Positions 2,922 through 35,701 of a stretch of DNA of 52,698 nucleotides are shown here, piece by piece. Position 1 is the first letter of the stretch. Each line of letters starts with the position of its first letter. The notes below the pieces were generated by a model. It was not told the origin of the DNA and searched no databases. It saw only the letters and a program-made list of their open reading frames with translations. This stretch comes from a virus (Duplodnaviria > Caudoviricetes), in the IMG/VR virus record IMGVR_UViG_3300017647_000006, positions 1 to 52,698 of that record. One strand, 5' to 3'. The position numbers and the translations under genes are program-made.

Positions 2922-4013
2922 TTATCCGCCGGCGAGCGGGTTGAGCCGCGCAGTTGCTTCCTGCTCGGCGTCGTTGACCTCAGCGATCGCCTCGTCCGGC
3001 ATCGCCTTGCGGTGCTTGTCGAAAAGATTGATCGCGGCCTTGAGGTCGATGACGGTGGTCGCCGCCTTCACCGCGGCAATGTGAGCATCGACCACTGCGC
3101 GCCACGGCGGCGTATTGTCGGCCTCGTCCGCAGCGGGCTTTGCGTCACCCTTGCCGCTGTCCGCCTTTGCCGGCGGTGCCGCCTTCTTCTGCGCGTCGGC
3201 AATCTTGCGCAGATCCTCGGTCACGTCGTCGGTTCCCGGCTTGGGGAACGCTTCTTCGGCCGTCGTTTCGCCGTTCCTGATAGACTGGTAAACGATTTGA
3301 AGGTTGGCGAGCTCGACCGGGGTCCAATTGGCGCTCGGCCCGTAGCGGTCTTCGAGACGGTCGAGGCTGATGCCGATCCGAGAATAGTGCTCGATCGCGC
3401 CCGCGATGCGCGTCGGCAGCGGCTGGTCGCCCTCGCCCTTCTCAAGCACTTCCCGGCAGCGCGATTCCGCCGCCACCTTGAGATAGGGCGGCAGGACGCG
3501 GAAGATGCACTCGCGCAGGCGGCGGGCGCCGTTGTTTGCGTTGTTCTCGTAAATGTCGCGGTTATCGGTGAGCGCCTTCTTGCCGTGCCGCGTGTCGCGC
3601 GTGTGCGGGACAATGAAGGTCTGCCGGGACTTCGTGTTGGTCTCCAAGTCCCATGCAAAGGCGAGCATTTCGGTATGGCCGGCGACGTCGTCGCGGGCCA
3701 GTTCCATGATGCCATAGTCAATGTTGCCCCAGCACCGCGCCAACTCGGTCGCCAACTGGATCGTCGGGCCGGTCACAATCTCGCCGCCGCGCTTGAAACT
3801 GAAGAATGAGCGCGAGGCGACGGCCATCTGGCTGCAACTGGCCAGCGCGTGCGCCATCGCCCGCCCCTCGTCGCGCGGTGCGCGTTGAGCGACGAGCACC
3901 ATTGCTTGAACCTCGGCGATCGCTCGCGACTGCTCGATGTTCGTCGCCTGGCTGGCGCCGGGGATGCGGTTGGCCTGCTGACGGATCTGCTCGGGGGTAA
4001 CGATATCGTTCAC
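2922..4013 (-). CDS. Putative single-strand annealing/recombination protein
   Basis: 363 aa immediately downstream of a RecE-like nuclease, with a conserved-looking N-terminal core (GPTIQLATELARCWGNIDYG) and a low-complexity C-terminal linker. Function inferred from position. Confidence 0.55.
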   Translation of the reverse strand: MNDIVTPEQIRQQANRIPGASQATNIEQSRAIAEVQAMVLVAQRAPRDEGRAMAHALASCSQMAVASRSFFSFKRGGEIVTGPTIQLATELARCWGNIDYGIMELARDDVAGHTEMLAFAWDLETNTKSRQTFIVPHTRDTRHGKKALTDNRDIYENNANNGARRLRECIFRVLPPYLKVAAESRCREVLEKGEGDQPLPTRIAGAIEHYSRIGISLDRLEDRYGPSANWTPVELANLQIVYQSIRNGETTAEEAFPKPGTDDVTEDLRKIADAQKKAAPPAKADSGKGDAKPAADEADNTPPWRAVVDAHIAAVKAATTVIDLKAAINLFDKHRKAMPDEAIAEVNDAEQEATARLNPLAGG

Positions 4014-5024
4014 TTATTGCTCCCATGAAAGCTCGCCAGAATCGACGCGCTGGTTGATTTCGGCGTGCTTCCAGCGCGCCATGTGAAGGTGGAGGATCGG
4101 GTTTTCGGGCCGCGAATAGGCAGGCCAGAACCCCGATTTCAGGCACTCGGCAAAGGTGTTGAGCGCGCGCCTGTTGAGCATGCGGCCCATCTGGATCGCC
4201 TCGTCGTCGAGCTGGTAAATCTGGACGAGATGCGGCGGCTCTTTCTCGACCGCGATCAGCACGAAACGCCGTTTCCGGTCGGGCTCGCCAAAGACCAGGT
4301 CGACGCAATCGATGTAATGCGCCGCGGACTGAAAATAGCCGAGATTGGTCGCCTGCTTCTCGAGGGCGATCGGATGCGCCGATATCGTCGTCTTGATGTC
4401 GGGAACGATATCCATCGTCTCGGGCAGCACGTCGGGCCGCGCCCGCATGAAAACGCCGGTGATGGGATCCTTCGCGATGACGGTCATTTCGGGCGTGCCA
4501 CTGATGAGCAAAGCCTTGGCGAGCTCGTCCTTCTCGACCTGGGCCGCCATCGCCTCGATCATTCGATATTGCGGGAATGTGAGGACCGGGATGCCGTCGG
4601 CTTCGGCCTCGGCCTTCTCGTCCTTTGCGTAGGCCCATTTTTTCAGTCGCCCGTCGTAGCCGTCGGGGAGGATGAAATAGTTCTTAGGGAACAGGCCCTG
4701 CAGCAGAAGCAGGTCATGGACGCCCTTGCCGATGTTGAAATGCGACTTCTGCTCGCGCTGCGGCCTGTTGGGGTTGAGCGGCGACTGATACCAGTAGTGG
4801 AAGGGCGTCTGCCCCTCGATCGTCTTCAATCCGGTCGAGCTTATCGAGGGCGAGGCGCATATTTCGACCGCGTGATAACGCTCGCCGTCAATATCGGGGT
4901 AGGCGCCAGGCTCAGCGATCAAAGGCTGGTCATCGTCAACCTTCGGCTGCGGCTTGGCGCGCTCGTACGTCGGTTCCTCGCTGGGGGGCGGGCCGGAATA
5001 GTCCTTGGCGAATGGGTTATCCAT
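4014..5024 (-). CDS. PD-(D/E)XK exonuclease (RecE/ExoVIII-like, DUF3799 type)
   Basis: ISSTGLK, G..VHDLLL, RARPD, PDIKTT, GYFQSAAHY and FVLIAVEKEPP motifs. Confidence 0.85.
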   Translation of the reverse strand: MDNPFAKDYSGPPPSEEPTYERAKPQPKVDDDQPLIAEPGAYPDIDGERYHAVEICASPSISSTGLKTIEGQTPFHYWYQSPLNPNRPQREQKSHFNIGKGVHDLLLLQGLFPKNYFILPDGYDGRLKKWAYAKDEKAEAEADGIPVLTFPQYRMIEAMAAQVEKDELAKALLISGTPEMTVIAKDPITGVFMRARPDVLPETMDIVPDIKTTISAHPIALEKQATNLGYFQSAAHYIDCVDLVFGEPDRKRRFVLIAVEKEPPHLVQIYQLDDEAIQMGRMLNRRALNTFAECLKSGFWPAYSRPENPILHLHMARWKHAEINQRVDSGELSWEQ

Positions 5025-6675: not shown

Positions 6676-6798
6676 GGCCGGGGGCAGGATTCGAACCTGC
6701 GACACGTCGCGCGCAACGTCCGTGATACAATCGGGGGCGACCCGATCGCAGCGCACGGCTCCCTGATGAGGGCGCGCTACCTCTGCGCTACCCCGGCC
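6676..6798 (-). ncRNA. tRNA-like RNA with non-canonical anticodon/variable region
   Basis: Minus strand: GGCCGGGG/CCCCGGCC acceptor helix, TA, D arm GCGC-AGAGGTA-GCGC, T arm GCAGG-TTCGAAT-CCTGC. Three hairpins lie between the D and T arms instead of a standard anticodon arm. No encoded CCA. Confidence 0.75.
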
Positions 6799-25887: not shown

Positions 25888-27300
25888 ATGAACCTCGCTG
25901 AACAGATTCGCGCCTTCGAAGAGAAGCGCGCGGCCCTCGTTGCTGCCAATGAGGCGATCATCGCCAAGGCGGCGGAAGAAGGCTCGACGCTCGACGCCGA
26001 GCAGGAAGAAGAGTTCGACAACAACCAGGCCGACATCGAGGCCGTCGACAAGCATCTGAAGCGCCTGAAGGCGATGGAGGCGACGGCGAAGGCCAAGGTC
26101 GAGGACGACAAGAAGAAGGCCGTCCCCGCGGCTGGCCAGAACTTCGACGATGCCAGCGCCTCGCGCGCCGGTCATCGCATCGAGGTCAAGACCCAGCCCA
26201 AGCTGGCTCCCGGCCTTGAGTTCGCCCGCCTCGCCAAGGTGAAGGCGGTTGCTCGTCTCGACAATGAGCGCCCGCTCGACGTGGCGAAGGCCATGTATGG
26301 CGAGGACAGCAACGTCTTTGGGCTCGTTAAGGGCGCGGTCGTGGCTGGCTCGACGGCCTCTGGCAATTGGGCGGCCGCGCTGGTCGGCGATGAAACCGGC
26401 GCTTTTGCCGATTTCGTCGAATATCTGCGTCCCGCGACTATCCTTGGTCGCTTCGGGCAGAACGGCGTTCCCAGCCTGCGCACGGTTCCCTTCCGTGAGC
26501 CGCTGATTTCCCAGACGGGCGGCGGTGCCGCTTATTGGGTCGGCGAAGGCAAGCCGAAGCCGCTGACCGCGTTCAACTTCTCGCGCACCACTCTGGAGCC
26601 GCTGAAGATCGCGAATATCGCGGTGCTGACCGAGGAAAACGTCCGCAGCTCGAACCCGAGTTCGGAAGCCATCGTTCGCGATGCGCTGCGGGACGCGGTT
26701 GCGGCGGGCATCGACACGGCGTTCATCGATCCGGCGAATAACGGTTCGCCGAACGTCAAGCCGGCGTCGATCACCTACGGCGCCGAGTCGATCGCTTCGG
26801 AAAGCTACACGGATGCGGACGATATTCGTCTCGACGTCCGTTCGGTTTTCCAGAAGTTCATCGATGCGGACAACCCGCCGAACTCGGGCGTCTGGATCAT
26901 GTCGGCGACCAACGCTCTCGCGCTGTCGCTGATCCTGAATCCGCTCGGTCAGCGCGAGTTCCCCGACATCAGCATGAATGGCGGCACCTTCGAGGGTCTG
27001 CCGGTCATCGTGTCGGAGTACGCGGGCACGACCGTCGCGCTTGTGAACGCCAGCGACATCTACTTCGGCGACGAAGGCGGTGTGATGGTCGACATGAGCC
27101 GCGAAGCGTCGCTCGAGATGCTGGACACTGGGCTTCAGCAGGACGCCACGGCCGGAACGGGCGCTTCGCTCGTCTCGCTGTGGCAGAGCAACCTCGTCGC
27201 GCTGCGCGCCGAGCGCGAGCTCAACTGGATGCGTCGCCGCGCAAGCGCCGTCGCCTACCTGACCGGCGTGGCTTGGGGTGGCTCGGTCAACCCGAGCTGA
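25888..27300 (+). CDS. Major capsid protein (HK97 fold with delta domain)
   Basis: N-terminal coiled coil, AYWVGEG..KP, GLPVIVS, LVALRAE. Confidence 0.93.
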   Translation: MNLAEQIRAFEEKRAALVAANEAIIAKAAEEGSTLDAEQEEEFDNNQADIEAVDKHLKRLKAMEATAKAKVEDDKKKAVPAAGQNFDDASASRAGHRIEVKTQPKLAPGLEFARLAKVKAVARLDNERPLDVAKAMYGEDSNVFGLVKGAVVAGSTASGNWAAALVGDETGAFADFVEYLRPATILGRFGQNGVPSLRTVPFREPLISQTGGGAAYWVGEGKPKPLTAFNFSRTTLEPLKIANIAVLTEENVRSSNPSSEAIVRDALRDAVAAGIDTAFIDPANNGSPNVKPASITYGAESIASESYTDADDIRLDVRSVFQKFIDADNPPNSGVWIMSATNALALSLILNPLGQREFPDISMNGGTFEGLPVIVSEYAGTTVALVNASDIYFGDEGGVMVDMSREASLEMLDTGLQQDATAGTGASLVSLWQSNLVALRAERELNWMRRRASAVAYLTGVAWGGSVNPS

Positions 27301-27851: not shown

Positions 27852-29223
27852 GCGAGCATTGACCGTCCTGTCTGCCGGCCTCGCACCGCGGACGAAAGCG
27901 AACCTGTCACCGCCGGATAACCGGGGCTGGTATCGCATTCTTGAGAGTTTTTCAGGGGCTTGGCAGCGCAACGTCGAAGTCGATCAGACGGCGGTGCTGG
28001 CGAACCACGCGATCTTTTCTTGCACGACGCTGGTTGCGCGCGACATCGCCAAGCTGCGCGTCAAACTGGTCGAGCGCGACAAGGATGGCATTTGGACGGA
28101 AACCGACCGCCCATCGCCTCTTGCGCCGGTCCTGCGGAAGCCCAATCATTTCCAGACCCGGAATCAATTCTGGGAATCGTGGATGCTGTCGAAGCTGTCG
28201 CGCGGCAACACCTATGTCCTCAAAAAGCGCGACAATCGCAACGTCGTGACCGCGCTCTATGTGCTCGACCCGAACCGCGTGAAGCCCATGATCGCGCCGG
28301 ACGGGACGGTTTATTACCAGCTTTCGTGCGACAACATCGCCGGGATCGAGGAAAGCCAAATCCTCGTGCCTGCCAGCGAAATCATCCATGATCGCTTCAA
28401 CACGCTCTTTCATCCGCTGGTCGGGCTGTCGCCGATTTTTGCGAGCGGACTGGCCGCGACGCAAGGCCTGAAAATTCAGGAAAGCAGCGCCAACTTCTTC
28501 GCCAATTCGTCGAAGCCAGGCGGCCTTCTTGTCGCGCCTGGCCGAATTGACCCTGACAACGCGGCCCGCCTCAAAGAGACTTGGGAAACCAAATACAGCG
28601 GCGCGAACGCGGGCAAAATCGCCGTCCTTGGCGATGGAATGCAATACACGGCGCTGACCGTGAACCCCGTAGACTCCCAGATGGTCGAGCAACTCAAATG
28701 GACCGCTGAGCAGATTTGCGGGACGTTCCATGTCCCCGCCTACAAAATCGGGATCGGCGCGATGCCGACCTTCAACAACATCTCCGCGTTGAACACCGAA
28801 TATTACGCGCAGGGCCTTCAGTCGCACCTAGAGGACATCGAAAGCCTGCTCGACGAAGGGTTGGGCATGAAGGCCAACATCGGGACCGAGTTCGATCTGG
28901 ATACCTTGCTGCGGATGGACCCGGCAACCCAGATGGACACGCTCGAAAAGTCCAAGGGCAAGCTGACAGTCAACGAACAGCGCGCCAAGCTGGACAAGAA
29001 GCCGGTCAAGGGCGGCGACACGGTCTATCTGCAAGAGCAGGATCACAGCCTCGAATGGCTCGCCAAGCGCGACGCACAGCCGATCGAAGCGCCTGCCCCA
29101 TCGCCTGCCCCTGCCAACGATGACGACGACCCTGAAGCGCAGGAGGCGAAGGCGATCATTGCTGGCGCCGAATTGCGGAAGGCGCTGTTTATTCGTCCTT
29201 CGCGGGCGGAGGTTCGGACTTGA
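27844..29223 (+). CDS. Portal protein (HK97 family)
   Basis: LRKPNHFQT, RGNTY, IIHDR...GLSPI, FHVP, LTVNEQR, PVKGGD. Confidence 0.93.
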   Translation: MLERALTVLSAGLAPRTKANLSPPDNRGWYRILESFSGAWQRNVEVDQTAVLANHAIFSCTTLVARDIAKLRVKLVERDKDGIWTETDRPSPLAPVLRKPNHFQTRNQFWESWMLSKLSRGNTYVLKKRDNRNVVTALYVLDPNRVKPMIAPDGTVYYQLSCDNIAGIEESQILVPASEIIHDRFNTLFHPLVGLSPIFASGLAATQGLKIQESSANFFANSSKPGGLLVAPGRIDPDNAARLKETWETKYSGANAGKIAVLGDGMQYTALTVNPVDSQMVEQLKWTAEQICGTFHVPAYKIGIGAMPTFNNISALNTEYYAQGLQSHLEDIESLLDEGLGMKANIGTEFDLDTLLRMDPATQMDTLEKSKGKLTVNEQRAKLDKKPVKGGDTVYLQEQDHSLEWLAKRDAQPIEAPAPSPAPANDDDDPEAQEAKAIIAGAELRKALFIRPSRAEVRT

Positions 29224-29353
29224 TACCCTGTTCGATGAGTCGTCGGATAGCATCCGAGCGCGACCAGATTTTGTGCTTGGCACGCCATTCGTCGAGAGCG
29301 TCGATTTCGCTCTGACTGATCACGAGTTGGATTCGCACGTCTTTCCGCTCCAT
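29189..29353 (-). CDS. Ribbon-helix-helix (CopG/Arc-like) regulator
   Basis: Not in the ORF track. 54 aa: MERKDVRIQLVISQSEIDALDEWRAKHKIWSRSDAIRRLIEQGIKSEPPPAKDE, with an alternating beta strand, a helix and an SRSDAIRRLI helix. Confidence 0.8.
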   Translation of the reverse strand: MERKDVRIQLVISQSEIDALDEWRAKHKIWSRSDAIRRLIEQGIKSEPPPAKDE

Positions 29354-29380: not shown

Positions 29381-29480
29381 AGTTACAAGAGCAAGTTACA
29401 CAACTTTGCTTGACGCATCAACATGGTGAAGTTACACACCATGAGGCAGGCACAACCCGCCTGCGGTGCCGAGCAAAGGA
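29381..29480 (+). promoter_or_regulatory. Divergent promoter/operator region of the inserted cassette
   Basis: AGTTACA x3 (29381, 29394, 29430), TTGACG at 29410, inverted repeat CATGGTG (29422-29428)/CACCATG (29437-29443), RBS AAGGA at 29476. Confidence 0.6.
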
Positions 29481-29489
29481 TTTACGCAA

Positions 29490-30242
29490 ATGGCAAAGAA
29501 AGCGGTTGAACAGGAAATCATGGTCCCGGAACTTCGCCGGGGGATCGTGAAGTTGCGGATCATTGGTGAGACGCCGATGTTCCAAAACAGGATGGCGGCG
29601 AAGGCGAAGCAACAGCTTCTGGTCGGAGGTCGAAAGAAGACGGCGGCCGATCGGGCGCAGATCAAGCATCACCCGGTGGCCGAGTTCCGCGACAGCCTTG
29701 AGCGGATGCGCGACGGGCCGACCGCGCTGGGGTTGCGCGTCGTGGCCATGAAGGCGGCAATGTGCACGGCGGCGCTGGAGACGTCGGGCATCACGAAGAC
29801 GTCGGCGCAGCGCCTGCTGTTCATGCCCGGCGACCTGTCGGCGCTCTATGGGGTGCCGCAGCTTCGCATGGACGTGGTGCGGTCGGCGGACATCAACCGG
29901 ACGCCGGACGTGCGGACGCGGGCTTTCCTGCCCAAGTGGGGCGCCGAAATCGAAATCCATCACGTCCTGCCGCAGTTGCCGGTGGCGAGCGTTGTGACGC
30001 TGGCCTGCAATGCTGGTGTGCTCGTCGGTCTTGGTGACTTCCGGCAGGAGAAGGGCAAGGGCGCGTTCGGTTCGTTCCGGGTCATCACGCCGGACATGCA
30101 GGATGACGAATGGGACGATCTGGTCGCCAATCATGGGCGTGACGCTCAGTTGGCTGCGATCGACAGCCCGGAATATGCGGATGAGGACACCGCCGAATTG
30201 ATGGAATATTTCTTCGGCGAAGAGAAGCGGAGGGCCGCATAA
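29490..30242 (+). CDS. Stand-alone RAMP/Cas7-like RNA-binding protein
   Basis: 250 aa. N-terminal strand VKLRIIGETPM, MKAAM helix, thumb-like hairpin RMDVVR...DVRTRA, and C-terminal glycine-rich loop AGVLVGLGDFRQEKGKGAFGSFRV, in the order seen in RAMP/Cas7-group proteins. Recognised by eye. Confidence 0.7.
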   Translation: MAKKAVEQEIMVPELRRGIVKLRIIGETPMFQNRMAAKAKQQLLVGGRKKTAADRAQIKHHPVAEFRDSLERMRDGPTALGLRVVAMKAAMCTAALETSGITKTSAQRLLFMPGDLSALYGVPQLRMDVVRSADINRTPDVRTRAFLPKWGAEIEIHHVLPQLPVASVVTLACNAGVLVGLGDFRQEKGKGAFGSFRVITPDMQDDEWDDLVANHGRDAQLAAIDSPEYADEDTAELMEYFFGEEKRRAA

Positions 30243-30737
30243 ATGGCGCGTTTCACGAAGGCTCTGCGTCAGCAGATTATTCGCGAGTTCGCCGAGGCGC
30301 ACGGCGGGGTGTTTGACCCCGCCGCGTTCCTGTCGGCGGTCCATGATGAGGGTGAAGGCCACCCCGCCTATGAGTGGTTCGAGTGGAGCGACGACAAGGC
30401 CGCTCTGGAGTATAGGCTCGATCAGGCCCGCGACTTTGCGCGCGGCTTGGTCGTCCGGTTCGAGGTTCAAGAGGTTCATCGCGGCAAGATGCGGATCGCC
30501 GAGCGCAGCGCGCCGCTCGTGATGAGTCCGCTCGGCACGCGGAGGGATGGCGGCGGCTATGTCGTCACCGACCCGAACGACCCCGCGCATATGGAAGAAT
30601 TGCGCCGACAGGCCGCTGGCTCGCTGCGCTGGTATATCTCGCGCTATGAAGCGGTGCTGGCTGATGTTGGAGCGATGCAGCAATTCGAGCGCACGCTTGG
30701 GATGCTGGAAGTCGTGGAGCATCGCGAGGCTGCATAG
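30243..30737 (+). CDS. Partner protein of unknown function in the RAMP cassette
   Basis: 164 aa, starts directly after the RAMP-like stop. HPAYEWFEWSDDKAA.EYRLDQAR motif. Its stop codon overlaps the first array motif. Confidence 0.75.
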   Translation: MARFTKALRQQIIREFAEAHGGVFDPAAFLSAVHDEGEGHPAYEWFEWSDDKAALEYRLDQARDFARGLVVRFEVQEVHRGKMRIAERSAPLVMSPLGTRRDGGGYVVTDPNDPAHMEELRRQAAGSLRWYISRYEAVLADVGAMQQFERTLGMLEVVEHREAA

Positions 30738-31142
30738 GCAGGCAAGGCTCGGCGTGACGTGGCGAGTAATGGCGCGATGCGGCGAGGCGAGGTTTGGCAG
30801 GCGCGAAATGGCCCGGCGTGGTCGGGTAGCGATTGGCTCGGTCAGGACCGGCAGGCGAGTTACGGCATGGCGCGGCCCGGCGGGGAGCGGCTTGGCAGGC
30901 GTGAAGCGGCGAGCCAAGGCGAGGTTTGGTCGGGAGCGCGCGGTCAGGCAAGGCAGGCGCGGCGTGGCTTGGATCGACTGGGCATGGCACGGTTTGATAT
31001 GGCGCGGTTAGGCAGGCGTGGATGGGTTCGGCACGGCTAGGCCAGCGGTGGCGCGGACCGGATTGGCATGGCAGGTATGGTCAGGAACGGCACGGCTTGA
31101 TGAGGCACGTTTAGGCGGGGTCAGGCCTGGTATGGCCGGCAC
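30737..31142 (+). repeat. GGY-NN pentamer array in seven GGCA-delimited units (putative guide ncRNA)
   Basis: Manual parse: 73 pentamers, 72 starting with G and 52 with GGC/GGT, last two bases variable. GGCA tetramers at 30737, 30796, 30850, 30894, 30952, 31011 and 31070, and GGCC at 31134. Confidence 0.9.
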
Positions 31143-31321
31143 ACAAAGGGCGATCCTCCGGGGGCGGGCTTTTCATTGGATGACCTCATGGCCCGAACCG
31201 TTCGTCGAACGGCAATGAGCCATCGCTCACGGCGCGACGGCTTAGGTGCGCCGCAGATGTACCGGAAACCGAAATCAGCGGGCGGCCAATGAGCCGCCAC
31301 CCTTTATCATAAGGAGGCCGC

Positions 31322-32326
31322 ATGAACGCGACCGCTATCAGGGCCATGATGGGCGAACTAGCTCCCGTCATCCGCGAATATGTGGCCGCCGAGATTGCCG
31401 ACGTGCGCGCGGAGAATGCGGCGTTGAAGGCCGTGAACGCGGAACAGGCAAAGCGCCTCGCCGCATTGGAAGCCCGCGAGATGCCGAGCGTCGAAGGTCT
31501 CGCCAGCGTCGAAACCGTGCGCGGGATGATCGAAGCCGCCCTGCCCGATGTAGCATCGGAAATGCAGCCGCTCATCGCCCGCATGGATGCGATCGTCGAG
31601 ACCGGCGAGGAACGCGATGCCCGCTTGGTAGCCGTCGAGCAGCGTGAGATGCCGAGCCTTGAGGGCTACGTGACCGCCGAGGAAGCCAAGTCGATCGCCT
31701 CCGAGACTGTATCGGCCGCCATTGCCGAAATCCCGGCGCCACAGGACGGAAAGAGCATCGAGCCGGAAGAAGTACAGGCGATGGTCGACAAGGCCGTGGC
31801 GGCGCTCCCTGTGCCTGAGGCCCCCGAACCCATCGCGCCCGACATGGAAGCGATCGGCAAGATGATCGCGGACGGTATCGCCAAGGCCATCAGCGAATTG
31901 CCGCCCGCGGAGAAGGGCGAGCCCGGTGTCGGCTTGGCCGGCGCCATGATCGACCGCGACGGCAACCTGGTCGTGACGACCAGCGACGGGCGGACGCACA
32001 ATCTGGGCCTTGTCGTCGGCAAGGATGGCGCACCGGGTGAGACCTTCACGCTCGACGACTTCGACATTGAGCAGACCGATGAACGCACGCTGGAATTCAA
32101 GTTCCTGCGCGGCGACACGATGCACACGTTCGAGCTGGAATTTCCGGTGCCGATCTTCCGTGGCGCGTGGAAGGAAGGTCGAACCTACTCGAAGGGTGAC
32201 ATGGTTGTCTGGGGCGGCAGCTTGTGGGCGGCCACGAAGCAAACCGGCGCCAAGCCCGATTCGCCCGATAGTGGCTGGATGATCGCCGCTCGCAAGGGCC
32301 GCGATGGCAAGAGCGCGAAGGACTGA
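31322..32326 (+). CDS. Head-region structural protein with coiled coil and internal repeats
   Basis: AAGGAGG RBS, REMPSVEG/REMPSLEG repeat, GKDG motifs, C-terminal FRGAWKEG..Y.KGD.V.WGGSLW. Confidence 0.75.
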   Translation: MNATAIRAMMGELAPVIREYVAAEIADVRAENAALKAVNAEQAKRLAALEAREMPSVEGLASVETVRGMIEAALPDVASEMQPLIARMDAIVETGEERDARLVAVEQREMPSLEGYVTAEEAKSIASETVSAAIAEIPAPQDGKSIEPEEVQAMVDKAVAALPVPEAPEPIAPDMEAIGKMIADGIAKAISELPPAEKGEPGVGLAGAMIDRDGNLVVTTSDGRTHNLGLVVGKDGAPGETFTLDDFDIEQTDERTLEFKFLRGDTMHTFELEFPVPIFRGAWKEGRTYSKGDMVVWGGSLWAATKQTGAKPDSPDSGWMIAARKGRDGKSAKD

Positions 32327-32327
32327 C

Positions 32328-32879
32328 ATGCGCCGCCTCGAAATCGGCCCCGGCGCCGAACGTCTGCCCGGGTTCGAGACCTTCAACATCGCGCCCGGCC
32401 CGTTCACCGATCATGTCGGGGATGCGCGCCGTCTGCCTTTCAAGGATGGCACTTTCGCCGAGGTCTATTCGTCGCACTGCATCGAACATATCGAATGGTT
32501 TGACGTCGAGGCGACGATTGCCGAATGGGTGCGGGTAATCGCACCGGGTGGCTGGCTTGAGGTTCACACGGTTGATTCCACCTCGCTCATGCGTGCGATG
32601 CTCGAATGGGAGGAAACGGGCGAGACCAGCCGCTCGGCGGGGGCGTGGAAGCGCGAGCTGCACAAGGGCCACCCCTTCGTCGCCGCGGCGGGGCGCATCC
32701 TTTGCTACGCCAAGAAAGACGACCGGGGCGCGAACATGCACCGGGCGATCCTGACGCCGCGATATCTGCGCGAATGCTTCGAGCGGGCCGGGCTGGTCGA
32801 TCTGGAGACGGTCGCCGAGCCGCGCGGGTCAAAGAAGCATCGGAGCATCAACATGGGGCTGCGAGGGCGGAAGTGCTGA
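32328..32879 (+). CDS. Class I SAM-dependent methyltransferase domain protein
   Basis: RLEIGPG, GDARRLPF, VYSSHCIEH, RVIAPGG. Confidence 0.85.
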   Translation: MRRLEIGPGAERLPGFETFNIAPGPFTDHVGDARRLPFKDGTFAEVYSSHCIEHIEWFDVEATIAEWVRVIAPGGWLEVHTVDSTSLMRAMLEWEETGETSRSAGAWKRELHKGHPFVAAAGRILCYAKKDDRGANMHRAILTPRYLRECFERAGLVDLETVAEPRGSKKHRSINMGLRGRKC

Positions 32880-33715
32880 GCATCCGGACTCTGTCCGACA
32901 TGGCGCGGATCATCACCGCGAACCTGCATCGGATTGATCGAAGCGCCTTCGACTGCATCGTCGGCGTTCCCCGCTCGGGCATGATCCCGGCGAGCATAAT
33001 CGCGACGCAGCTTCAAATGCCGCTCGCTGACGTTGAGGGATATGGGCGGGGCATCGTGCATGGACGCTCAGGGCGCTCTGTCGAGGCTGGCAGGCGCATC
33101 CTGCTGGTCGATGATAGTTGCAATAAGGGAGGCGCGTTCAAGCGCGCTGTGAGCCTTCTGCCGAAGGGAACAAAGGCAACCCGGCTGGCGATCTTCGGCC
33201 CCTACCAGGTCGAGCCGGAATCGGTCTGCGATATGTGGTTCGAGGTCGTCCACGGCCCGCGGATATTCGCGTGGAACTGGACGAAGCACATTCGCTTGCC
33301 TCGCTGGGGCTTCGACATGGACGGCGTTCTCTGCCGCGACAATACGAAGGCCGAGAATGACGATGGCCCGCGCTACGCCGAGTTTCTGGCGACTGCCGAA
33401 CCGCTGTTCATTCCGCAGCGCGCGATCGGGCACATTATCACCGGGCGGGCGGAGAAATATCGGCCCCAGACCGAGGCGTGGCTCGCGCGGCACGGGATAC
33501 AGTTCGAGAGCCTGACCATGACCCCTTGGGCGACCAAGGGCGAGCGGATGGAGGCGATGCGGGCGACAGGTGGCCGCGGCGCGTGGAAGGCTGGGCACGC
33601 GGAAAGGCTGGGAGTCGAGATGTTCATCGAAAGCTGCCCGAAACAGGCGGGCATCATCGCGCGCGAGGCGGGTATTCCGGTTTTCTGCACAGCGACACAG
33701 GAGCTGGCGGCATGA
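32873..33715 (+). CDS. Phosphoribosyltransferase + HAD-like phosphatase fusion
   Basis: VGVPRSG and ILLVDDSCNKGG (PRT), then FDMDGVL, IITGR and FIES (HAD-like). Confidence 0.8.
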   Translation: MLSIRTLSDMARIITANLHRIDRSAFDCIVGVPRSGMIPASIIATQLQMPLADVEGYGRGIVHGRSGRSVEAGRRILLVDDSCNKGGAFKRAVSLLPKGTKATRLAIFGPYQVEPESVCDMWFEVVHGPRIFAWNWTKHIRLPRWGFDMDGVLCRDNTKAENDDGPRYAEFLATAEPLFIPQRAIGHIITGRAEKYRPQTEAWLARHGIQFESLTMTPWATKGERMEAMRATGGRGAWKAGHAERLGVEMFIESCPKQAGIIAREAGIPVFCTATQELAA

Positions 33716-34446
33716 TCCTCTCTCTCGTCATGCCATTCTATCTGAACAGCGGTATGCTCGCGCTGCAATATGCCGAGATGACCCGCTGGTCGGACAAGGC
33801 CAAGGCGCAGATCGAGGTGGTGATCGTCGACGATGGATCGCCCGAGCCCGCGGTTGACGTTGAACGACCAGAGGGCCTGCCGGACCTGCGGATTTATCGG
33901 GTTCTGGAGGATCGGCCTTGGTTCCAGAACGGCGCGCGGAATATCGCGGCGCATGAGGCGAAGGGAACATGGCTGATATCGACCGACATCGATCATGTGC
34001 TGACGGCGGAGAATGCGGACGCGCTGCTGAAGCGGATGCACCGGCTCGATCCCGAAACGGCCTATATGCTGCACCGCGTGGAAGCCGACACCGGGCTGCC
34101 GACATTGAACGCCAAGGGAAAACCGAAGCCGCACCCCAACAGCTTCGTGCTCACCCGCGACATGTATTGGCGGCTCGGGGGCTACGACGAGTGGTTCACA
34201 GGAATCTACGGGACCGATTCAATGTGGAGGGCCCGTCTCTATGCCGTCGCCAAGCAGGGTTTTCTCAAGCACGTCGCGCTGACCCGATATTGGCGCGGCC
34301 TTGTGCCAGACGCTTCGACCACGACGCTGCCGCGAAAGGAAGGGCGCGTTCCCGGCGAGAAAGAGGCCATCGCTTTGGCGAAGAAGGCGGCGGGCAAGGA
34401 GGATGAAATCCTGTCCTTGTCGGCTGAATACGAAAGGGCGCTGTGA
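33712..34446 (+). CDS. Glycosyltransferase family 2
   Basis: SLVMPFY, VIVDDGS, ARNIA, TDID (DxD), LGGYDEWF..YGTD. Confidence 0.88.
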   Translation: MILSLVMPFYLNSGMLALQYAEMTRWSDKAKAQIEVVIVDDGSPEPAVDVERPEGLPDLRIYRVLEDRPWFQNGARNIAAHEAKGTWLISTDIDHVLTAENADALLKRMHRLDPETAYMLHRVEADTGLPTLNAKGKPKPHPNSFVLTRDMYWRLGGYDEWFTGIYGTDSMWRARLYAVAKQGFLKHVALTRYWRGLVPDASTTTLPRKEGRVPGEKEAIALAKKAAGKEDEILSLSAEYERAL

Positions 34447-34991
34447 TGGAGCGTTGGCTGCCGGTCGTTGGCTATGAAGGCCATTACGAGGTGTCGGACC
34501 TTGGGCGAGTTCGGAGCGTCGCCCGCGTAATCACACGAGTGATGCCCGATGGATTGGTCCAGCACCAGCGCCGACCTGAAAAGATCATGGGGCAGTCAAC
34601 GCATGGTGACCGATGGTATGCCCGCGTCACGCTTTGCGTCGATTACCAAAGAAAGACGATTTCCGTTCACACTCTGGTATTGGAGGCCTTCGTCGGTCCG
34701 GCGCCGGATGGGATGGAGTGCAGGCATCTCGATGGAAACCAGAGGAATAATCGGCTCGGAAATCTCGCATGGGGCACGCCCGATCAGAACCAGGCAGACA
34801 AAGTTCGGCATGGGACAATTCTGAAGGGCGAGCGGGTCGTTCAATCGGTCCTGACTGCCAGTGATGTCGTTCAGATTCGGCGGCGCTACGCAAATGGGGA
34901 GCGTCAGTATCGGCTCGCCCGTGAACTCGGCGTCAGCAAGGCGACAATTTGCCGCGCGATACATGGCCGTTGCTGGGCTCACGTCGCATGA
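34446..34991 (+). CDS. NUMOD4-HNH homing endonuclease
   Basis: ERWLPVVGYEGHYEVSDLGRVRS (NUMOD4), VHTLVLEAF...CRHLDGN..NNRLGNLAWGT, C-terminal HTH. Confidence 0.9.
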   Translation: MERWLPVVGYEGHYEVSDLGRVRSVARVITRVMPDGLVQHQRRPEKIMGQSTHGDRWYARVTLCVDYQRKTISVHTLVLEAFVGPAPDGMECRHLDGNQRNNRLGNLAWGTPDQNQADKVRHGTILKGERVVQSVLTASDVVQIRRRYANGERQYRLARELGVSKATICRAIHGRCWAHVA

Positions 34992-35701
34992 TTTCGATCA
35001 TCTTCTGGCTGTGGCGCCAAGAGAAAACCCGCACTCTCTACACCGCAAATCATGTGAACGTCGCCGCAGCCATGGTGCGCCGCAACCTGTCGATGCCGCA
35101 CCGCATCGCCTGCGTGACCGATATGCCGGAAGGGATAGACCGGAGCGTGGAGATCATCACCCCGCCGGGGGATTTTCTCGATATCTCCAACCCGCGTTGG
35201 ACCAACGGCCGGCCCCAGTGTTACCGGCGCCTGTCGATGTTCCGCCGCGATGCCGGGGAGATTTTCGGCGAGCGGTTCGTTTCTATGGATTTAGATTGTG
35301 TCGTCGGCGGCCCGCTCGATCCGCTGTTTGATCGGCCCGAGGATCTTGTACTGTTCAAGGGCACGCTGCGGGGGCGTCCGTATAACGGATCGATGATGAT
35401 GATCCGGGCGGGCTGCCGACCCGATGTTTACGAGGATTTCAACCAGGAGGCCGCGCTGGAATCGGGGCGCCTCTTCTGCGGGTCCGATCAAGCGTGGCTG
35501 ATGCACAAGCTCGGGCCGAACGAACCTGTCTGGGACGATGCAGACGGGGTTTACTGGTTCGGGGGCGCTTATCGAACGCGCCGGGATAAGGTGCCGCCGC
35601 GGGTTCTCTTCTTCCCCGGCAATCTGAAGCCTTGGGATGTCAAGAAAATCGACCCGTTCGCGCGCGAGCATTATCATCTGGATTTGATGGAGGCGGCATG
35701 A
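34988..35701 (+). CDS. GT-A fold glycosyltransferase
   Basis: ACVTD, SMDLDCVV (DxD), YNGSMM, GSDQAW, FFPG..KPW. Confidence 0.8.
   Translation: MISIIFWLWRQEKTRTLYTANHVNVAAAMVRRNLSMPHRIACVTDMPEGIDRSVEIITPPGDFLDISNPRWTNGRPQCYRRLSMFRRDAGEIFGERFVSMDLDCVVGGPLDPLFDRPEDLVLFKGTLRGRPYNGSMMMIRAGCRPDVYEDFNQEAALESGRLFCGSDQAWLMHKLGPNEPVWDDADGVYWFGGAYRTRRDKVPPRVLFFPGNLKPWDVKKIDPFAREHYHLDLMEAA

Follow-up and report, generated by a model that had tools for sequence, protein, structure and literature searches.

The stretch of DNA analysed here (the window, 52,698 nucleotides, IMG/VR record IMGVR_UViG_3300017647_000006) comes from an HK97-like temperate siphophage; the virus record is about 80% complete and carries genes for a cI-like repressor, terminase, protease, capsid, portal and tail proteins. 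The portal gene and the head gene that follows it flank a small cassette that consists, in order, of a divergent RHH gene, vipr, vap and an array of pentamers. Of 80 related portal loci, 69 gave matches to the two flanking genes, and 67 of these have 90-723 nt between the matched stretches. The 250-aa gene of the cassette is absent from all 80; the cassette is therefore an insertion. As expected of a VIPR system, the locus is a minimal pair of vipr and vap in a virus, with noncoding DNA at its flanks. The RHH gene (29189..29353, minus strand) encodes 54 amino acids with a match to Pfam RHH_1 (E 2e-4, over the cut-off) and is a probable regulator of the cassette; a copy that is 83% identical stands upstream of vipr in one other locus (L001), the sole case among 80 vipr loci. 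A promoter-like stretch follows on the plus strand (29393..29438), with TTGACG-17 nt-TACAC at 29410 and a 10-nt direct repeat at 29393 and 29429 whose two copies are possible RHH operators. The vipr gene (29490..30242, plus strand, extendable to a GTG at 29466) encodes a 250-aa RAMP-fold protein, and vap (30243..30737, plus strand) encodes a 164-aa accessory protein that matches the functionally unannotated family phrog_15946 at E 8e-6. The last base of the vap stop codon is the first base of the first array junction, and vipr, vap and the array are probably carried on one transcript. No Cas6-like gene, ribozyme or Rfam family was found at the locus, and none of the 59 + 4 window proteins scanned belongs to a cas family.

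The model of the 250-aa protein (pLDDT 85.5) has Csm3/Cas7 as its best Foldseek match (E 1.7e-5), and VIA aligned 148 of its residues at Z 8.6 and an rmsd of 3.9, with CRISPR-associated entries filling the top 44 of 50 rows. No Pfam family was assigned to the sequence, and a sequence search of the PDB gave no match. As modelled, Vipr is a RAMP-fold protein with an RRM core, thumb and G-loop that is encoded outside a CRISPR locus, which is how the VIPR family is recognised. A word-seeded search found 1282 relatives and a profile search 2567 representatives. An HMM of 82 family sequences finds the Vipr of SUSP1 (YP_009199429.1) among 199 ORFs at E 5.7e-14, the next match standing at E 0.4, and a narrower profile of 107 sequences finds it at E 3.8e-5; this protein of the SUSP1 record has nine of the ten residues numbered in the VIPR structure paper. 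The two Vipr proteins share 32 identical residues over 165 aligned. At the GGY-binding positions, SUSP1 R138, D177 and R179 align to R144, D183 and R185, all three of which are invariant in 107 homologs, and W178 aligns to F184. The SUSP1 DNA contact K33 aligns to L43 and R39 to K49, and the G1 contact H17 and DNA contact K82 fall in unaligned columns.

Vap has homologs by tblastn in 66 of 80 related loci, with an invariant H40. Its model is confident. Foldseek returned no fold match at E 0.001, the best VIA match was to helical hairpins at Z 5.9, the ESM Atlas gives only unnamed clusters, and neither a Pfam family nor an evident nuclease motif was found in the protein. With SUSP1 Vap1 there is no clear similarity (1.7 bits).

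Several further features of the window were recorded. A hairpin in the vipr leader (29445-29470) contains a junction-like GCAGGC and its complement, with a similar one in L001; its folding z-score is not significant, and it could be an autoregulatory Vipr site. The one Rfam match over the window and nine loci is tRNA-like (6676-6797, minus strand, 42.8 bits, 122 nt); ARAGORN made no call there, and the stretch is possibly an interrupted tRNA or the remnant of an attachment site. Inside the head-tail module, 32304-35701 holds a methyltransferase-like gene, an HNH gene and several unannotated ORFs, and an acyl-carrier-like protein is encoded at 2278-2532 on the minus strand. Searches for the host by terminase, capsid and exonuclease gave matches below 60% identity and were uninformative.

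Grammar of the array

The original prediction, made from the letters alone, described seven units opened by GGCA at 30737, 30796, 30850, 30894, 30952, 31011 and 31070, with a closing GGCC at 31134. These positions are exact, the unit lengths of 59, 54, 44, 58, 59, 59 and 64 nt are correct, and all seven strings of variable dinucleotides (NN) were reproduced. Each unit thus spans 44-64 nt of GGY/NN pentamers, and the phase is reset by a 4-nt GGCA, each of the seven steps being a -1 shift; the junction reads GGCAGGY in seven cases out of seven. The strict 5-nt phase that had been described holds across the array but breaks once, inside Unit 4, at a single 4-nt step (gcGC, the GC that the prediction had set in brackets). 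All but one of the 73 full pentamers have G in first position (72); GG opens 60 of them and GGY 52, and all 16 NN types are used. The NN letters are 52% A+T (77/148) in a window of 62.6% G+C, in agreement with the AT-rich NN that had been reported. Units contain 8-12 pentamers, or 9-13 when the overlapping junction repeat is counted, and a VIPR guide is recognised by about 9-16 GGY/NN repeats with variable NN.

The periodicity is confined to this region. The GG lag-5 score of the array is 46. In 2000 dinucleotide shuffles it is 14.6 +/- 3.3 and never exceeds 27, and no other 400-nt stretch of either strand scores above 13. Tandem Repeats Finder did not report the array. The assembly of a run designated X3 has a contig across 29200-31356 with zero letter differences from the window, an agreement that is not independent because X3 may be the source of the window DNA; contigs of the RNA run X7 cover 29399-29549 and 30436-30586, outside the array, all runs having been examined as contigs, which hold no RNA-end information, and small-share runs counting as no evidence. 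Translation under codon-level selection had been named as evidence that would overturn the guide reading, and the array is noncoding: stops occur in all six frames, 1-6 in each, and the three codon positions hardly differ in G+C (0.67-0.70), in contrast to 0.67/0.43/0.80 in vipr.

At its 3' end the array runs through the closing GGCC step and a last pentamer into an imperfect G+C hairpin with a T run (31134..31172, plus strand), which is terminator-like by its sequence. Its folding z-score is +1.6, and no tail is repeated per unit. Over the units, the leader and the 3' end, no stable fold was found (z -0.7 to +1.6), and a promoter and terminator scan made no call, the stretch at 29393..29438 and the 31134..31172 hairpin included. 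A run of five consecutive GG-NNN pentamers at the 3' end of the major capsid gene (27265-27289) is probably a codon effect.

Genes addressed by the units

To decode the units, each NN string was read as positions 1 and 2 of successive codons, and the integrase and protease motifs were put to the test. The proposal that each unit is a guide with a skipped base between dinucleotides is borne out for six of the seven units, which match convergent coding sites at a skip of one base; in all six the skipped base falls on the codon wobble position.

Unit 5 (30952..31010, plus strand, 11 NN) has its target in the N-terminal part of the portal gene in related phages, and its exact 20-base matches lie at one site of portal-type ORFs in 14 cases of 14 (L102 among them is annotated). 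Unit 6 (31011..31069, plus strand, 11 NN) matches a second site in such genes, at best 20/22. In 160 loci chosen by portal or Vipr likeness, Unit 5 has 28 sites and Unit 6 has 52 at 80% or better, and the ten best of each, which were inspected, are portal. The original prediction had called for gapped patterns to be compared with shuffled strings; at skips 0, 2 and 3 these two units have no site at 80%, and shuffling (30 shuffles each) yields few or none, with maxima of 3 and 1 sites. Units 1, 2, 3, 4 and 7 gave no signal over shuffles in these 160 loci.

Unit 7 (31070..31133, plus strand, 12 NN) reads, at 24/24, the run of codons that surrounds the catalytic tyrosine in tyrosine integrases. 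Exact 24-base matches number 11 in GTDB, where fewer than 0.01 are expected, and 7 in metagenomes; all 18 are in frame at IQTTFDTYGHL in a single integrase family, with Pfam PF00589 in the eight ORFs of eight tested. Allowing three mismatches, the unit was found at 21/24 in 2 of 50 related phage records (control 0) and in 8 of 301 genomes, where the reversed control found none; the eight include the centre genome and the unpublished G064 and G237. The same search of 9 + 1 small records found nothing, and a 20-base scan of IMG/VR gave no match.

Unit 2 (30796..30849, plus strand, 10 NN) matches the antisense strand of the terminase large subunit gene of putative tailless satellites of 10-12 kb, 18/20. 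Seven of its nine exact 18-base matches are to terminase large subunit antisense in records of 4-12 kb, and the other two are to a homing-endonuclease-like gene (19/20). Unit 3 (30850..30893, plus strand, 8 NN) spells codons of the HK97-type prohead protease, 16/16, this gene accounting for 119 among the 121 matches listed. The matches of these two units in the large collection mark candidate targets. In the six small elements found through Unit 2, Unit 3 scores 16/16 in two and 14/16 in four, and this convergence of both units on the same six elements supports the skip-1 targets.

Unit 4 (30894..30951, plus strand, 11 NN, interrupted once by the 4-nt step) matches, at 22/22, the N-terminus of the tape measure in a satellite-like record of 15.4 kb (L368). 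A scan with the first 16 bases of this unit gave 30 matches, of which the one in L368 extends over the six unsearched bases to the full 22; none of the other 29 extends fully, the best (L362) reaching 4/6 of these bases, and 50 further related records had no match. Within L368, the 22/22 of Unit 4 and a 19/24 of Unit 7 in the integrase gene each exceed all of 200 shuffles. The target reads straight through the internal 4-nt step, in this one record, so that the step is either a recent one-base loss or a sign that a phase slip alone makes no boundary.

For Unit 1 (30737..30795, plus strand, 11 NN) there are three unrelated 18-base matches, none in 50 related records, and no convincing target was found among them. 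An 18/22 site in an ORF of L368 (3102-4067) beats 200 shuffles and is unsupported by homologs: the guide calls for other residues than the Phe present in 118 of 120 and the Val present in all 120. It is a weak candidate only. The background of such scans can be read from the 16-base search with Unit 4, whose 30 matches are mostly scattered, and the 18-base search with Unit 1, which gave three. Where named, the genomes with perfect Unit 7 matches are of actinobacterial type, and 12 of the 14 Unit 5 matches lie in loci of 47-49% G+C; the matches therefore identify gene families, not the true target genomes, and actinobacteria are unlikely to be the host of this phage.

The six whole records retrieved through Unit 2 (L320-L325) are related, 10-12 kb long and 60-63% G+C, with HNH-terminase first. 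In the four that were annotated (33 ORFs), integrase, terminase, capsid and portal genes are present in every one and primase, HNH, protease and adaptor genes in some, and no tail gene was found among the ORFs tested, three of the four records having been scanned in part. From this gene content we predict that they are capsid-forming tailless satellites, and that they behave as such. The cf-PICI elements, as described in the text of bioRxiv 10.1101/2022.09.08.507074, are similar in their 10-12 kb, their integrase, primase, HNH, terminase, capsid, protease, portal and head-tail adaptor genes and their lack of a tail; the difference is that cf-PICI gene order is given there as capsid-protease-portal, whereas our records start with HNH-terminase. 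L368 (G010:C1:1-15443) is a provirus record with integrase, excisionase, HK97-type protease, tail chaperones, tape measure and neck genes and no match to capsid, terminase or portal. Its protease matches that of the window phage at 40%, and it has further genes in common with this phage family, one of them at 62% over 88 aa with the window's 31322 gene. The record is possibly a tail- or head-modifying satellite and could instead be a decayed prophage; searches of the satellite literature did not place a 15-kb element with a tape measure. A protein identical to part of its ORF 3102-4067 occurs on a record from Sphingopyxis, which hints at a sphingomonad host.

Judged by their matches, six of the seven addresses aim at genes of rival phages and of phage parasites, and at the level of sequence they form a map with two fronts, the portal of the phage's own family and satellites. 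No self-target was found. The original prediction reported no self match by eye in the PL, OR or cassette promoter regions, and at skips 0-3, with 100 shuffles per test, nothing rises above the controls (lowest p 0.05 of 28 tests), so the phage's own regulatory regions are not matched. The best skip-1 self scores of Units 1 to 7, in a record about 80% complete, are 16/22, 14/20, 12/16, 15/22, 16/22, 15/22 and 15/24; no self target reaches 80%, as is usual for VIPR. In its own portal gene, the sites homologous to the targets of Unit 5 (28009..28041, plus strand) and Unit 6 (28714..28746, plus strand) score 16/22 and 14/22, and scores as low occur in 37 of 80 relatives for Unit 5 and in 5 of 80 for Unit 6. 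Ranked by divergence, the two stretches stand 16th and 34th of 388, in a gene whose C-terminal half is divergent anyway, which is suggestive only of a portal that may have drifted at the targeted sites for self-escape.

Mode of action and alternative readings

Much of what follows has precedent. The VIPR family is defined in 10.64898/2026.04.26.720920, which, in the parts of it used here, lists staggered arrays with 1-nt overlaps as an architecture not confirmed by small-RNA sequencing. According to the texts on the SUSP1 and P. fulva systems, one Vipr subunit sits on each pentamer with GGY buried, NN paired and every third target base flipped, transcription is silenced, and satellites are fended off through their recombinase. 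The VIPR family, the skip code and the staggered architecture are thus already known from 2026 preprints; the original prediction had not identified the family. The staggered arrays of the Fig. S18 legend in 10.64898/2026.04.26.720920 agree with our locus, by legend text alone, in a phage vipr and vap with GGY/NN repeats, a skipped wobble base, no self targets and a 1-nt overlap of consecutive vrRNAs, which here occurs at each of the seven GGCA steps, where GGCAG shares its last G with the next GGY. The type II system of SUSP1, as its texts describe it (10.64898/2026.04.26.720920, 10.64898/2026.04.26.720927, 10.64898/2026.10.15.759431), has a homologous Vipr with the GGY residues kept and guides aimed at satellites and at a recombinase active site. 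It differs in that its Vipr has 195 aa, whereas ours has 250 aa with a helical C-terminal extension, and each of its vrRNAs ends in its own conserved, structured 3' tail of about 40 nt (a repeat seen in the sequence), whereas the units of the window abut tail-less. The modelled RAMP fold with G-loop and the guide-RNA filament recall the Class 1 CRISPR-Cas backbone (Cas7/Csm3); no direct repeats with contiguous spacers and no cas operon were found, specificity being interleaved in 5-nt repeats, and at skip 0 there is neither a self match nor any site for Units 5 and 6. We are highly confident in reading the region as a staggered guide array that belongs to a phage-borne VIPR system.

By homology, Vipr subunits would coat the RNA, one per pentamer, with GGY buried and NN presented to double-stranded DNA, so that every third target base is skipped in guide-DNA pairing. 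At the invariant GGCA step the phase moves by one base, and one guide ends there. The addresses spell the first two codon positions in genes that are conserved and essential in competitors: the portal of related phages (Units 5 and 6), the terminase and protease of capsid-forming satellites (Units 2 and 3), the tape measure of an element that is satellite-like and has genes in common with the phage family (Unit 4) and integrase active sites (Unit 7). The likely outcome is transcriptional silencing of the targets, which we infer because neither a nuclease fold nor a nuclease family was found for Vap.

The junctions behave as the boundaries that had been proposed: adjacent units match different genes, target flanks equal the neighbouring NN in 2 of 11 cases, which is near chance, and they equal the junction letters in 1 of 6, also near chance. 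At the level of sequence, the tail-less units delimited by junctions are thus separate guides, each with an address of 8-12 codons. The units may be processed at GGCA. Alternatively, the array may stay uncut: individual filaments of Vipr would then assemble along a single long RNA, each bounded by junctions, with the one-base phase shift serving as insulation only. The lack at the locus of a Cas6-like gene, ribozyme, Rfam family, per-unit tail or stable fold speaks for an uncut array, and so does the small-RNA sequencing reported in the text of 10.64898/2026.04.26.720920, which confirms ribozyme and single-guide architectures only and not staggered ones; against it, the Fig. S18 legend of the same preprint, by its wording alone, speaks of individual processed vrRNAs, and the junction is fixed within each clade (GGCA in close relatives, GGCG-GTC in distant ones), which suggests sequence-specific recognition. 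On balance, we regard an array that is never cut as possible, if rather doubtful.

It is less probable still, and in our judgement unlikely, that the guides lead to destruction of the target or to a block of its replication or packaging with Vap as effector, and not to silencing of transcription. The conservation of vap beside vipr and the invariant H40 would fit such a role, as would the predicted enzymes that VIPR types III-V carry according to the text of 10.64898/2026.04.26.720920; however, no Pfam family, fold match or evident nuclease motif was found in Vap, and the characterised phage-borne VIPR systems, as their texts have it, silence. Finally, that the array reflects slippage of a GGCNN satellite or translation of a low-complexity peptide, with matches due to the chance of codon-shaped patterns, is very improbable and largely refuted: short ORFs do overlap the array, codon-like patterns match conserved proteins more easily and the units of relatives lack a local signal, but the six-frame stops and flat codon-position G+C speak against it, order-shuffled skip-1 controls fail where the real units succeed, and the matches converge on single sites of phage and satellite genes.

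Returning to the staggered guide array, we tentatively propose, as a conjecture more likely wrong than right, a variant of VIPR that lacks tails and whose Vipr filament, with its extra C-terminal helices or with Vap, would itself read the clade-specific junction (GGCA, or GGCG-GTC in distant relatives) and cut or insulate the array. Such a system would be a self-contained multi-guide one that needs no Cas6, ribozyme or tail; whole units would be gained and lost, the slip in Unit 4 would be read through, the two fronts would be sibling phages and at least two classes of satellite, the 15-kb element with a tape measure being one, and the phage's own portal would have drifted at the sites of both Unit 5 and Unit 6 to escape self-silencing.

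In the text of 10.64898/2026.04.26.720920, target predictions are given only for types III and V and, within type II, for the clades of SUSP1 and P. fulva, whereas it is staggered units that are decoded here. The string 'GGCA' is absent from its main text and 'GGCAGG' from its supplement text; its figures and data may include the clade, the type and the junction. What is new, as read from sequence, is target-level evidence that tail-less units are separate guides, together with the two-front target map, in which one phage aims at portal genes of its own family as well as at satellites. The natural guide-target pairs of Units 3, 4, 5 and 7 are ready for studying the maturation of staggered arrays, and if the proposed working is true, a compact array of seven guides with 4-nt separators would be an attractive format for multiplex silencing.

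Related vipr loci and their arrays

Arrays of this kind recur beside related vipr genes. In 80 viral loci with a vipr homolog, GG-lag-5 chains were found in 54 and at least one phase-resetting 4-mer in 49. The junction follows the clade: loci at 63-93% identity mostly have GGCA, L010 excepted, and GGCG then GTC predominates at 43-54%. Comparing arrays of related phages for unit gain or loss, as had been suggested, was informative: L007 and L008 have 6 of 9 parsed units in common, with 8-11 identical NN pairs, and the rest differ, which means that whole units are gained or lost. By inspection, L001 and L002, at 91-93% identity, have no unit in common with the window. The 120 units of relatives, searched against a 5.1-Mb local set, revealed no preference for any skip, with 12 at skip 1 compared with 9-13 at other skips and in shuffles; that set was built around the window's guides and so has little power for the units of relatives. 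By eye, the hairpin-T runs that close the arrays of relatives are clearer.

L011, L013-L015, L017, L019-L021 and L023 share a conserved leader, about 150 nt upstream of vipr, that looks structured. In several of these loci its complementary stretches contain GGCAGG together with the complement of GGCAGG, and none of the six scanned has an Rfam match. This leader presumably resembles the c4-type antisense leaders of phages. Very long staggered arrays occur at L010:3948-5358 (more than 20 units), L059:3483-4841 (about 20) and L005:7252-7775; their scaffold is nearly pure GGC, their NN are biased, and no targets were found for them locally. L060 and L061 have ten short pentamer chains over 2 kb, some 850-2900 nt downstream of vipr, in a layout unlike the staggered one. 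Distant homologs of vipr and vap (about 30%) are present in 33 annotated phage records, all named hypothetical, which include Mycobacterium and Gordonia phages and Pseudomonas phage LESphi2. Closer homologs (51-56%) lie on a Paracoccus plasmid (L372, NZ_CP040759.1) and a Sulfitobacter plasmid (L373, NZ_CP136687.1), where an array with GGCG-GTC-type junctions stands between vipr and vap, and these two plasmids are convenient cultured sources.
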